Source of the DNA: Escherichia coli
GTDB lineage: Bacteria > Pseudomonadota > Gammaproteobacteria > Enterobacterales > Enterobacteriaceae
Length of the DNA stretch: 64,000 nt
Direction: 5' to 3' (one strand)
Assembly (NCBI RefSeq): GCF_001677475.2
Contig: NZ_CP015229.1
How positions within the stretch are numbered: the first letter of the stretch is position 1; each line of letters opens with the position of its first letter. The position numbers are program-made. Below, piece after piece: positions 6,001-9,000 of the stretch.

Positions 6001-9000
6001 ATCTGTTGCCGGATAATCGACGGAAGATGCGTTCTTTTTGTGATTTGGCGTAATGATGATCCCACTCACATTCAAGGTAGTTTAATTCTTCGTTTAACCA
6101 GTCATTTATATTGTCTTTCAGACGTAGAAGCATGGCTGGTGTTAATATTCTGGACATAATGTCGAGAGTTGGTGGTGTGAGGTGTCCATACGGTTCAGCC
6201 TGAATGGATTTTACTGCTTCGTGGTTTTGCTGAATGAGTTTAAGGAATGCTGATTTAAATTGTTCATTCATGGCCTGCATGCAGGCGGTATATTTATGTT
6301 CATCGTTATACATTGCTAAATCCTCGACGGGAATTGTCAGATATATTTCAGCCATCAGGTAAAACACCAGTGCCCACCACTGGCGGGCTGAAGACTTAAC
6401 ATATCCAGGGATTCGGAACCGATAAATCCTGATAAATATCCATGAACACCAAAATCAAATACGGTCTGTCGGCTGCCGTTCTGGCGCTGATTGCCGCAGG
6501 TGCGCCTGCGCCTGAAATCCTCGACCAGTTTCTGGATGAAAAGGAAGGTAACCACACCACGGCATACCGTGATGGTGCGGGGATCTGGACCATCTGCCGT
6601 GGAGCCACCCGGGTGGATGGTAAGCCTGTTATTCCTGGCATGAAGCTGTCAAAGGAAAAATGCGACCGGGTTAACGCCATCGAACGTGATAAGGCGCTGG
6701 CATGGGTGGAGAAAAACATCAAAGTGCCGCTGACCGAACCCCAGAAAGCGGGGATCGCGTCATTCTGTCCGTATAACATTGGCCCCGGTAAGTGTTTCCC
6801 GTCGACGTTTTATAAACGAATTAATGCAGGTGATCGAAAAGGTGCCTGCGAAGCGATTCGCTGGTGGATTAAGGACGGTGGCAGAGACTGCCGTATCCGC
6901 TCAAATAATTGCTACGGTCAGGTATCCCGGCGAGATCAGGAAAGTGCGCTGGCGTGCTGGGGAATTGACAGATAAGCAGAATATTTTTGCTGAAAAATGA
7001 CGTTGGCCAACGTGGGCGGATAACGCGAAATCCTGCGAACTGGCGAAATGTAAGTGAGTAAAGTCAAAACTGTTGTTTCACGCTGAGGCACCGCAATGGT
7101 GCCTTTGTCATTTTCTGCGCATCTCACGCGCATATCACAACACAGAACCTTTCAGGATGACCCTTGAGGATACCGGTTTGGCTATCGGTGCTTTTCTGTG
7201 GGCCGGATTCCTGTGAGACAAGGTTCATCACTAAAAGGAAATAACCGATGAATATGATGACCGTGCCGTTTCACGGCAACTCTCTTTATGTGGTTAACCA
7301 TAATGGCGAGCCATACGTTCCCATGAAGCCTGTTGTTGCGGGGATGGGGCTAGCCTGGCAATCACAGTTGGCTAAGTTAAGCAGCGTTTTGCGTCAACTA
7401 TAACGGAAATCGTTATGGTTGCTGAGGATGGGAAACGACGCAATATGGTATCCCTGCCACTTCGAAAACTTGCGGGCTGGTTACAAACCATCAATCCCAA
7501 CAAAGTTAAACCTTAAATCCGCGACAGGGTCATTCAGTATCAGGAAGAGTGCGACGATGTTCTCTATGAATACTGGACGAAGGGTTTTGTCGTTAATCCC
7601 CGTCGAATGAGCGTGATGGAAGAACTCAATCAGGTATGCGCTGACATGAAATGGGATAAAAACATCGCCAGTTTGTTTGGTACCGGGCTGAGTGAGTGGA
7701 AGTCGGTTAAAGCTGCACATGTATCAAAAATTCGCACGTTGATAAACGAAGCGAATCTGCTGATTGATTTTGTCCTGGCTGATACAGGCAAAGGAAAAAT
7801 CACAAAGACGGATTGATGGAGTGGTGACCAATGATATCAGACAAACTCATAACGCTGGCGAAGATCCTCTGTGTAATTGTCGGCATTTCATTTTCACTAA
7901 TGCTGGTTGCTCTTTTTCTTTCCCTGGGCTGGATGATGTTGTCTTCGTCGGGGATGCTGGGGTGAGCATAAACCGAATGCTTTCCGCGTTTACCGTTATT
8001 CTGCTGGTGGTCTGTGGTGCGCTGTGTCTGGCAACAAACCATTACCGCGATAACGCCATCACTTACAAAGCGCAGCGCGATAAAAAAGTCAGTGAGCTGA
8101 AGCTGGCGAACGCCACCATTACTGATATGCAGCAGCGCCAGCACGATGTTGCTGCGCTCGATGCAAAATACTCGAGGGAATTAGCCGATGCGAGAGCTGA
8201 AAATGAAACTCTGCGTGCTGATGTTACCGCTGGTCGTAAGCGCCTGCGGATCAACGCCACCTGTCCAGGCTCCGTGCGTGAAGCCACCGCCACCGCCCGC
8301 GTGGGCAATGATGCCAGCGTCGAACTCTCTCCAGTTGCTGGACGAAACGTTCTCGGTATCAGAGACGGAATCATCAGCGACCAGGCAGCATTGAGAACGC
8401 TTCAGGAATATATCCGTACTCAGTGCCTGAAATAGTTTTTTCAATGCGTTGTATCGTCGCCGTATTTCCGCATTAACAGAGACCGCAGCCCTACGGGGAG
8501 ACTCCTCTGCGCGAGTGTGCGGGGATAATCAAAAACGATACACACCGGGGTTTACTGCGTTAACGGAGCGCGGCGTTGTCCCCTCATAGTCGCCTGGCCG
8601 GTGCGATGGTGGAAGAAACCGGAACACATTACAAAATGATAACAATTATCATTTTTCGGGTCCTCCTGGCGGGGTGGGCCTGTACACGGGGCGGGTCGGC
8701 GCGGAAAAAAGCGCATTTTTGTGATTTTATCGTCATCATCATCATGTATGTAAACTGTTGTTTTTAATGTAATTGATGCAAAAAAGATGATGGTTGTGGC
8801 CAATTTTTGTTCGACATCTTTGTGTGGCGGCATTTCTTTACAAAAAAACAGAATCACTTCTGTTCAGAGGGGTATGTGGAGGAGGCGTAGATGGACGGCG
8901 AGCTGAAAAATATGAAGTTAAATATTAATCAACTGGCAGCCCTTTCAGGCCTGCACCGGCAGACCGTTACCGCAAGAATGGCGGATGTTCCTCTTGCTCC

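Follow-up and report, generated by a model that had tools for sequence, protein, structure and literature searches.

The cos site of phage lambda is among the closest described systems for the DNA considered here. In lambda-like phages, cosQ is a highly conserved 7-bp site and the left half of cosN is also conserved; changes at cosN bp 7-12 are common (bp 9 and 12 in N15; bp 8, 9 and 11 in Gifsy-1), and the I2 segment is needed for termination in lambda (PMC4669245). The adjoining cosB usually has the layout R3-I1-R2(inverted)-R1, with R3 at bp 50-65 in lambda and bp 48-60 in N15 (PMC9026076). A second described system is the Fur box near the noh genes of K-12. Chen et al. reported a Fur site at -233 of nohA (22.3 bits, positive in gel shift, and recovered earlier in vivo by Fur titration, FURTA) and a nohB site of 25.3 bits, the third-highest in their genome table (PMC2189734). 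Here, we analysed a 64,000-nucleotide stretch of Escherichia coli contig NZ_CP015229.1 (assembly GCF_001677475.2), called the window below, and in it the interval 8436-8890 between the Rz gene and the terminase genes of a prophage. With a probability of about 0.85, positions 8633-8890 are a lambda-family cos of a lambdoid prophage belonging to the VT1-Sakai/mEp213/Gifsy packaging lineage, and the palindrome at its left end is a homolog of the Fur box and not a cut site. The site is thus a member of a known family and largely ordinary, its novelty confined to a variant of the right half of cosN within the lineage whose small terminase is of the DUF1441 family.

An earlier note on this DNA had taken the Rz-to-terminase interval for a packaging site, and this is borne out. 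The note was also right that the exact lambda cohesive-end string GGGCGGCGACCT is absent from the interval; the cohesive end must differ from that of lambda. Its further suggestion, that the cos is distinct in kind, does not hold, because the interval carries an exact cosQ, a cosQ-to-cosN spacing of 24 bp against 23 bp in lambda, an identical left half of cosN, and the lambda order cosQ-cosN-I2-R3-IHF-R2-R1. The packaging-termination subsite cosQ, GGGTCCT, lies at 8658-8664 on the plus strand and is identical to lambda 48473-48479; the corresponding distance to the start of cosN is 22 nt in LLS and mEp460. By alignment of the flanks, cosN is placed at 8687-8703 on the plus strand as the variant cg/GGGCGGGTCGGC(G)/.., where slashes mark the borders of the predicted cohesive end. 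Its context at 8685-8704 reads CACG/GGGCGGGTCGGC/GCGG, against TACG/GGGCGGCGACCT/CGCG in lambda and CACG/GGGCGGCGCGCT/CGCG in LLS. Window and lambda agree in the left half, GGGCGG, and in the CG that flanks it on the 5' side, and the right half differs at 6 of 6 positions (6/12 identical overall). The LLS GenBank record annotates GGGCGGCGCGCT as the 5' cohesive end at the homologous position; this end was inferred by the LLS authors and agrees with a putative cos of mEp213 from an analysis by M. Feiss (PMC12315714). The same cosN variant as in the window also occurs in a viral (prophage) contig, L073. The GC-rich blocks reported in the earlier note are real, with 77.5% G+C at 8660-8699 and 30% at 8620-8659; cosQ and the variant cosN are both found within this G+C-rich part.

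A direct search for the lambda cohesive-end string with up to 3 mismatches gave matches at the chance level only, 43 in the window against 50.9 +/- 7.7 expected, and the sole match inside 8436-8890 (minus strand, 8480-8491, 3 mismatches) was rejected; the variant differs at 6 positions and was found through its flanks.

Upstream of cosQ lies the perfect inverted repeat AAAATGATAA-caa-TTATCATTTT, with arms of 10 nt at 8633-8642 and 8646-8655 and a centre of 3 nt. The earlier note had described its arms correctly and placed it 1 bp off, at 8632-8654. By homology and by consensus match, this palindrome (8633-8655, no strand assigned) is a predicted Fur box. Its 7-1-7 core TGATAACAATTATCA, at 8637-8651, agrees with the 7-1-7 motif TGATAATNATTATCA at 13 of 14 positions and with the 19-bp Fur consensus GATAATGATAATCATTATC at 15 of 19. 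It is the sole site of at least 12/14 in the 64 kb, in which 0.005 sites of at least 13/14 are expected, and the 23-mer pattern of the whole palindrome (up to 3 mismatches) occurs once in the window and in 0 of 100 shuffles. Inverted repeats as such are a different matter: 8 perfect ones with arms of at least 10 bp and loops of up to 5 nt, some overlapping, are present in the window against 0.4 expected from Markov-1 simulations, so that such repeats are not rare there. Five more of them lie at 30741, 33488, 37159, 57152 and 62180; some are at gene ends and are likely terminators, and the one at 33488 is near the prophage/host junction, beside potB. The sequence GATAATGATGAATATAAGC at 47207-47225, in host DNA downstream of the open reading frame 45204-46454, matches the 19-bp Fur consensus at 14 of 19 positions on both strands.

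The earlier note had read the palindrome as the mark of a distinct cos. Lambda, however, has a homologous palindrome, TGATAATCATTATCA (TGATAAT-C-ATTATCA), at 48452-48466, which is the only 14/14 7-1-7 site in the lambda genome. The same TGATAAT-C-ATTATCA stands 6 nt upstream of cosQ in lambda and in Qin and DLP12, two cryptic prophages of K-12 that have a lambda-type cos with the Fur-box element. In the window, the core is likewise 6 nt upstream of cosQ and differs from the lambda/Qin core in one of the specified bases (T7 to C) as well as in the central base, which is free. The centre of the Qin palindrome is 233 bp upstream of the nohA ATG, in agreement with the published nohA Fur site at -233. 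The note had named two outcomes that would speak against its proposal, a canonical cosN on re-inspection or a palindrome of a generic host factor, and something of each was found: a variant cosN next to an exact cosQ had been overlooked, and the palindrome belongs to the Fur type.

How general this arrangement is was assessed in viral contigs with the pattern GGGTCCT-N(20-26)-CGGGGCGG, an ACG flank being required, which yielded 83 unique lambda-like cos sequences; Gifsy-2 and Fels-1, having no exact GGGTCCT, were left out. The 7-1-7 motif, at 12/14 or better, is present 3-8 nt upstream of cosQ in 53 of the 83 (44 of these carriers have 6 or 7 nt between motif and cosQ), and random control windows from the surveyed loci contain it in 6 cases out of 4150. 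Upstream of the motif, the carriers show 12 unrelated classes of flank, and their cosB sequences form 10 classes, the lambda, 21, phi80 and DUF1441 types among them. Every site of at least 13/14 in the 1.08 Mb of phage loci (60/60) is within 30 nt of a GGGTCCT. Natural variants mostly alter one arm without compensation in the other, for example TGATAACCATTATCA, TGATAATCATTATCG and TGATAATCACTCTCA, which favours a protein site over a hairpin. Among class representatives, identity is 0.84 in the core and 0.30 in the flanks, a comparison that is biased by the selection on the core and serves as an illustration only. This tight and widespread linkage of Fur box and cosQ, in lambda itself as well, is the part of the analysis that goes beyond routine annotation; our literature search for Fur linked to cosQ, cos or terminase found nothing relevant.

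Some variation in the sampled cos sites deserves mention in its own right. At the place of cosQ, Gifsy-2 (L141, 480-560) and Fels-1 (L005, 1500-1560) have AGGTACTCC; Fels-1 keeps CACG/GGGCGGCAGCGG/CGCGG, and in Gifsy-2 GGTGGC replaces GGGCGG. Since neither has an exact GGGTCCT, the invariance ascribed to cosQ may not be complete, in this terminase lineage at least. Deposited genomes that are otherwise near-identical differ by 3 nt in cosN, namely mEp460 (L004) and mEp460_4F5 (L014/L015), with GGGCGGGAGCGGCGCGG and GGGCGGGAGCGCGG, and Flotzy (L006) set against LLS (L010/L011) and Eeyore (L007), with GGGCGGCGCGCTCGCGG and GGGCGGCGCCGCGG; this may be an assembly artefact at the cohesive ends and not real variation. 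The N15-type contig L021 has, in its last 140 nt, the cohesive end GGGCGGCGTCCG, with changes from lambda at bp 9 and 12, the positions published for N15. Ahead of its cosQ, at 6 nt, stands a palindrome variant that is symmetric, CGATAA-cta-TTATCG, and whose core matches the Fur motif at 11 of 14.

To the right of cosN, the remaining parts of a lambda cos can be recognized as candidates. An A-tract/T-tract segment, GCGGAAAAAAGCGCATTTTTGTGATTTTATC, occupies the lambda I2 position at 8701-8731 on the plus strand, by positional alignment with lambda CGCGGGTTTTCGCTATTTATGAAAATTTTCC and the LLS and mEp460 equivalents, and by this analogy would have an I2-like function. The candidate for an R3-equivalent small-terminase site, GTCATCATCATCATG at 8732-8746 (plus strand), is proposed from its position and conservation: in the window as in LLS it occupies bp 44-58, bp 1 being the first base of the cohesive end, and the motif is kept in the VT1-Sakai, Eeyore and L060 types, with a close variant, GGCATCATCATCATC, at bp 45 in yong2. 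An IHF-like site, AAACAACAGTTTA, the candidate for I1, follows at 8751-8763 on the minus strand (bp 63-75) with 1 mismatch to the IHF core WATCARNNNNTTR. It sits between the R3-like and R2-like repeats, and the identical scan recovers I1 of lambda, on the minus strand at bp 79-91, also with 1 mismatch. At up to 1 mismatch on both strands, this is the only match to the core in 8600-8895, and 8600-8700 contains none. The R2-equivalent candidate, AAAGATGATGG (CCATCATCTTT inverted) at 8783-8793 on the minus strand (bp 95-105), is an inverted CATCATC copy that is kept in VT1-Sakai-type relatives and opposed in orientation to R3 and R1, as in lambda. The R1-equivalent candidate, GTTCGACATCTTTG at 8809-8822 on the plus strand (bp 121-134), is a direct CATCTTT copy, and relatives have GTTCGACATC, GTTCATCATC and GTTCATCAC at this place. 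At the level of the sequence, there are thus candidates for all that a cosB would comprise (an R3 near bp 48-65, an IHF site, an inverted R2 and an R1). Set side by side, the order of the elements is alike in the window, lambda, LLS, mEp460, yong2, VT1-Sakai, KH16-043, 1720a-02, Flotzy and Eeyore.

The genes around the site fit the same lineage, in which a DUF1441 small terminase is combined with a large terminase of the gpA type, and a lambda-type portal with a ClpP-capsid fusion. Rz ends at 8435, with Rz1 embedded at 8188-8394, and the interval is followed by the packaging and head module. The small terminase gene (8891-9367, plus strand, ribosome-binding site AGGAGG at 8880-8885) encodes 158 amino acids of the DUF1441 family (Pfam PF07278, E = 5.5e-49). 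The protein is 95% identical to VT1-Sakai H0025; its identity is about 50% with the small terminase of LLS/mEp213 and 34% with the Gifsy-2 counterpart. The large terminase gene (9364-11487, plus strand) encodes 707 amino acids of the gpA family with ATPase and nuclease domains (GpA_ATPase, PF05876, E = 8e-81; GpA_nuclease, PF20454, E = 1e-84) and is 24% identical to lambda gpA (E = 5e-19). The description of the terminase as lambda-like in the earlier note is therefore correct for the large subunit; for the small subunit it fails, as no similarity to lambda Nu1 was detectable (E = 0.48). A lambda-family portal and then a ClpP-protease/capsid fusion follow the terminases.

The 455-bp interval matches a prophage in E. 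coli N96 at 100% identity and, along its entire length, VT1-Sakai and several Stx2a prophages at 88-91%, and homologous intervals are present at a median of 2 and a maximum of 9 places per E. coli genome. To the left of the palindrome, sequence comparison shows a conserved non-coding spacer after Rz (8436-8632, no strand assigned), which is 88-94% identical in more than 100 Shiga toxin (Stx) or lambdoid phage records. Many of these records diverge once cosQ is reached, or even earlier; the spacer's membership in the cos is not demonstrable. The stretch 8436-8624 is conserved to this degree across more than 100 Stx and lambdoid records with differing packaging modules, and no support for an open reading frame was found in it. 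An Rfam scan of 7000-10000 (E <= 1) gave 0 matches, and RNA folding of the spacer 8436-8632 gave no structure signal (z = -0.43).

As for the state of the prophage, an element of the IS21 family of insertion sequences (IS) at 20704-22955, with an IstA-like transposase (20704-22203) and an IstB/DnaC-like ATPase (22200-22955), splits the tail tape-measure gene (region 18507-23475). The open reading frame 18507-20615 covers only positions 205-888 of the 1151-position tape-measure profile; partial and interrupted as this gene is, the prophage is therefore tail-defective. Between endolysin and Rz, the gene of the anti-repressor Ant is broken into three frames, 7248-7403, 7419-7610 and 7607-7816. 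Only the first piece still matches the Ant families, and the VT1-Sakai ant at this place is intact, 570 bp. The packaging genes look intact. For the Sakai prophages it has been shown that a prophage which is itself defective can, if its cos is intact, be packaged by a co-resident one whose cos matches (PMC2669165).

For the counterparts of the palindrome near the noh genes, further binding data are on record. A chromatin immunoprecipitation sequencing peak of FNR has its summit at 1634625, the same coordinate as the Qin nohA Fur site, and this peak is listed among Fur-bound loci (PMC3688515); a Fur ChIP-exo peak is assigned to a nohD-containing operon in one strain with C_RS locus tags (supplement of PMC10164565). 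An FNR site upstream of nohA/nohB was reported by FNR ChIP-chip and gel shift and lies inside the lambda-type region left of cos (PMC1802558). The FNR site, TTGATGCAGATCAA, is about 90 bp upstream of the Fur box in Qin (L016) and DLP12 (L017), and the window differs from both at this place. The window variant of the Fur box, with its one core mismatch, is predicted to bind Fur as well.

Several points weigh against a lambda-family cos with a Fur box. Short as they are, the R-like repeats were assigned by visual inspection and from their position. A 12-nt overhang would leave GC as the right flank, not the conserved CG, with 2/16 symmetric positions. The 5' cohesive end could span 8689-8700 (12 nt) or 8689-8701 (13 nt). 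A 13-nt overhang would give CG/CG flanks and 10/17 symmetric positions, near the 10/16 of lambda, and would thus fit the rules on flanks and symmetry better; the right half of cosN is 1 bp longer in the window and VT1-Sakai than in KH16-043-type relatives. What speaks against the 13-nt overhang is that the R3-like repeat is as far from cosN bp 1 in the window as in LLS. On account of these differences in flank and symmetry, the overhang length is uncertain and the site could be impaired. Among the phage records homologous to 8600-8890, none starts or ends at this cos, which is internal in all of them, and the mEp460 record begins at the terminase gene. The prophage is defective, with the IS element in the tape-measure gene and the broken ant gene, and the current function of its cos is not guaranteed. 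The Fur core carries the T-to-C change at position 7, and binding of Fur to this variant is a prediction only. In MG1655 delta-fur, mRNA changes neither for nohD (log2 fold change -0.14, p = 0.97) nor for nohA(nohQ) (-0.29, p = 0.62) (PMC10164565), so that Fur binding is without a shown consequence. Finally, the LLS and mEp460-type cos have no palindrome, which is thus not essential for this terminase family; about one third of the surveyed cos sites lack it, so that it is optional.

These points have to be weighed together with other explanations of the interval and its palindrome. The absence of an exact lambda cosN, a small terminase unrelated in sequence to Nu1 and a right half of cosN that differs at 6/6 positions would all suit a cos or pac of a non-lambda kind, HK97-like or of novel specificity, in which the palindrome is the recognition or cutting element. 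We regard this as very improbable in view of the exact cosQ, the lambda spacing, the left cosN half with its CG flank and the lambda-like subsite order, all next to a large terminase of the gpA family; moreover, lambda bears the same palindrome upstream of its own cosQ, and relatives with the same small terminase family have the cosQ-cosN pair without it. An action through nucleic-acid structure, as a terminator, an RNA hairpin of the late transcript or a DNA cruciform, is also highly unlikely. The perfect 10-bp stem with its 3-nt loop does have a DNA hairpin free energy of -6.1 kcal/mol (z = -4.4 against shuffles), but the stem is nearly all A/T, with one G-C pair per arm, and is not the G+C-rich stem with a T run of an intrinsic terminator; its flanks are unrelated in sequence. 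The terminator scan did not report the palindrome, its single terminator-like match being on the minus strand at 8483-8496 and within chance expectation. Besides, one-arm variants are uncompensated, with only the N15-type variant symmetric, the 7-1-7 core of the window is itself asymmetric at position 7, and Rfam has no match.

Two further explanations keep the palindrome as a protein site and assign it another purpose. It could be a classical Fur operator repressing a promoter that leads into the terminase genes or leftward, which would make the packaging genes iron-responsive. Read by eye, the DLP12-type sequence has a TTGTGA followed after 18 nt by a TATCAT that overlaps the box (with no tool score), and nohD in W3110, in the data set that also covers MG1655, is about 7-fold different (log2 fold change -2.76, p = 0.03) at very low counts. 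This explanation is poorly supported and improbable: a scan of 8200-9100 on both strands gives no sigma-70-like promoter, reading by eye finds no usable -35, and thus no overlap of the box with a Fur- or iron-dependent promoter is seen, in line with the unchanged nohD and nohA(nohQ) in MG1655 delta-fur. Upstream flanks also vary among carriers, whereas the distance to cosQ is fixed. In lambdoid phages, transcription of the late genes starts at pR' and runs through cos. Alternatively, the palindrome could extend cosQ and be read by the phage terminase or portal in termination, Fur binding being incidental. The fixed spacing, with a gap of 6-7 nt in most carriers, the occurrence of the motif only beside cosQ in the sampled loci, and its presence with terminases that share only the gpA-type large subunit speak for this. 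It is nevertheless improbable, as the published cosQ has 7 bp (PMC4669245), about one third of lambda-like cos, among them those of the plaque-forming isolates LLS and mEp460, are without the motif, and the lambda sequence is a perfect Fur consensus to which Fur does bind (PMC2189734).

With the locus read as a lambda-family cos, we propose the following course of packaging, which builds on what was observed directly: cosQ, the left half of cosN and the palindrome, each with its sequence identity and its place; the families of the proteins; and the enrichment and fixed spacing of the palindrome. By analogy with lambda, the small terminase would bind the CATCATC-type repeats at 8732-8746, 8783-8793 (inverted) and 8809-8822 for initiation, and IHF would bend the DNA at 8751-8763 in aid of it. 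Repeats and IHF together would put the large terminase on cosN at 8687-8703, where staggered nicks would leave a 5' overhang starting GGGCGGGTCGGC. DNA would then be packaged rightward, and the motor would reach the next cos from the Rz side. Termination there would require cosQ at 8658-8664, cosN and probably the A/T-tract segment.

Among the functions considered for the palindrome itself, none is clearly ahead, and any role of Fur in packaging is put forward here as a proposal. Bound Fur could act on the incoming motor just before cosQ, as a pause or accessory factor for termination at cosQ; this is possible, if well short of even odds. Replicating phage DNA could titrate Fur, the nohA fragment having been isolated originally through Fur titration, which we take as a weaker possibility. 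The rest of the probability falls to a neutral, inherited Fur site carried along with cosQ, or to another function. The site could also be read by phage proteins. Only tentatively, then, do we suggest that the Fur palindrome is a selected, optional fourth subsite of cos, acting either as a motor pause that lets cosQ and cosN be recognized or through the titration of Fur by hundreds of replicating phage copies, which would turn host iron uptake on in the course of lytic growth, and, as a separate matter, that the subgroup of the window and VT1-Sakai has 13-nt ends.

Taken this way, one of the strongest Fur sites of K-12, the nohA/nohB box, accompanies cosQ at a fixed position, in lambda as in about two thirds of the sampled lambda-like cos. 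This raises the question of whether Fur, and hence iron status, affects the termination of DNA packaging or its yield, which can be tested with existing lambda genetics. The analysis also settles the annotation of the window: it locates the packaging site with its subsites and shows where the ends of the genome of a VT1-Sakai-type prophage are likely to lie, which is relevant for predicting which co-resident prophages in Shiga-toxin E. coli can package one another's DNA.

In comparison with the lambda cos, the site in the window thus shares the exact cosQ, the 23-24 bp from cosQ to cosN, the CG and GGGCGG of the left half, the A/T-tract after cosN, a three-repeat cosB with an inverted middle repeat and an IHF-like site after the first repeat, a large terminase of the gpA family, a small terminase gene that starts about 200 bp after cosN (bp 203 in the window, 191 in lambda), and a Fur-type palindrome 6 nt upstream of cosQ. 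It is unlike lambda at the 6/6 positions of the right half and in its right flank, which is GC with a 12-nt overhang if the overhang is not 13 nt. The repeats are of the CATCATC type and not of the lambda R consensus, the small terminase is DUF1441 and not Nu1, and the large terminase is only 24% identical. VT1-Sakai (Sp15) with related Stx-converting prophages and the mEp213/LLS/mEp460/Fels-1 group, for which we found no published mapping of the ends, the LLS end being its authors' inference, share with the window the DUF1441 small terminase, the cosQ-to-cosN spacer type cctgg.ggggtgggcctg.acacg, GTCATCATCATCATG at bp 44-58 and the ClpP-capsid fusion among the head genes. The right half of cosN reads GTCGGC in the window, GCGGGC in VT1-Sakai, GCGGCG in KH16-043, CGCGCT in LLS and GAGCGT or GAGCGG in mEp460, and LLS and mEp460 differ from the window in having no palindrome. 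With the Fur box of nohA (Qin) and nohB/nohD (DLP12), the window shares the 7-1-7 core 6 nt upstream of cosQ; from the box to the start of the small terminase gene or its homolog there are about 233 bp in K-12 and about 247 bp in the window. Fur binding has been shown for the K-12 sequence only, and the K-12 site lies in cryptic remnants with a Nu1-type gene, whereas the Fur box of the window precedes a complete DUF1441/gpA packaging module. The arms of the palindrome measure 10 bp in the window, 7 bp in lambda and 8 bp in DLP12.

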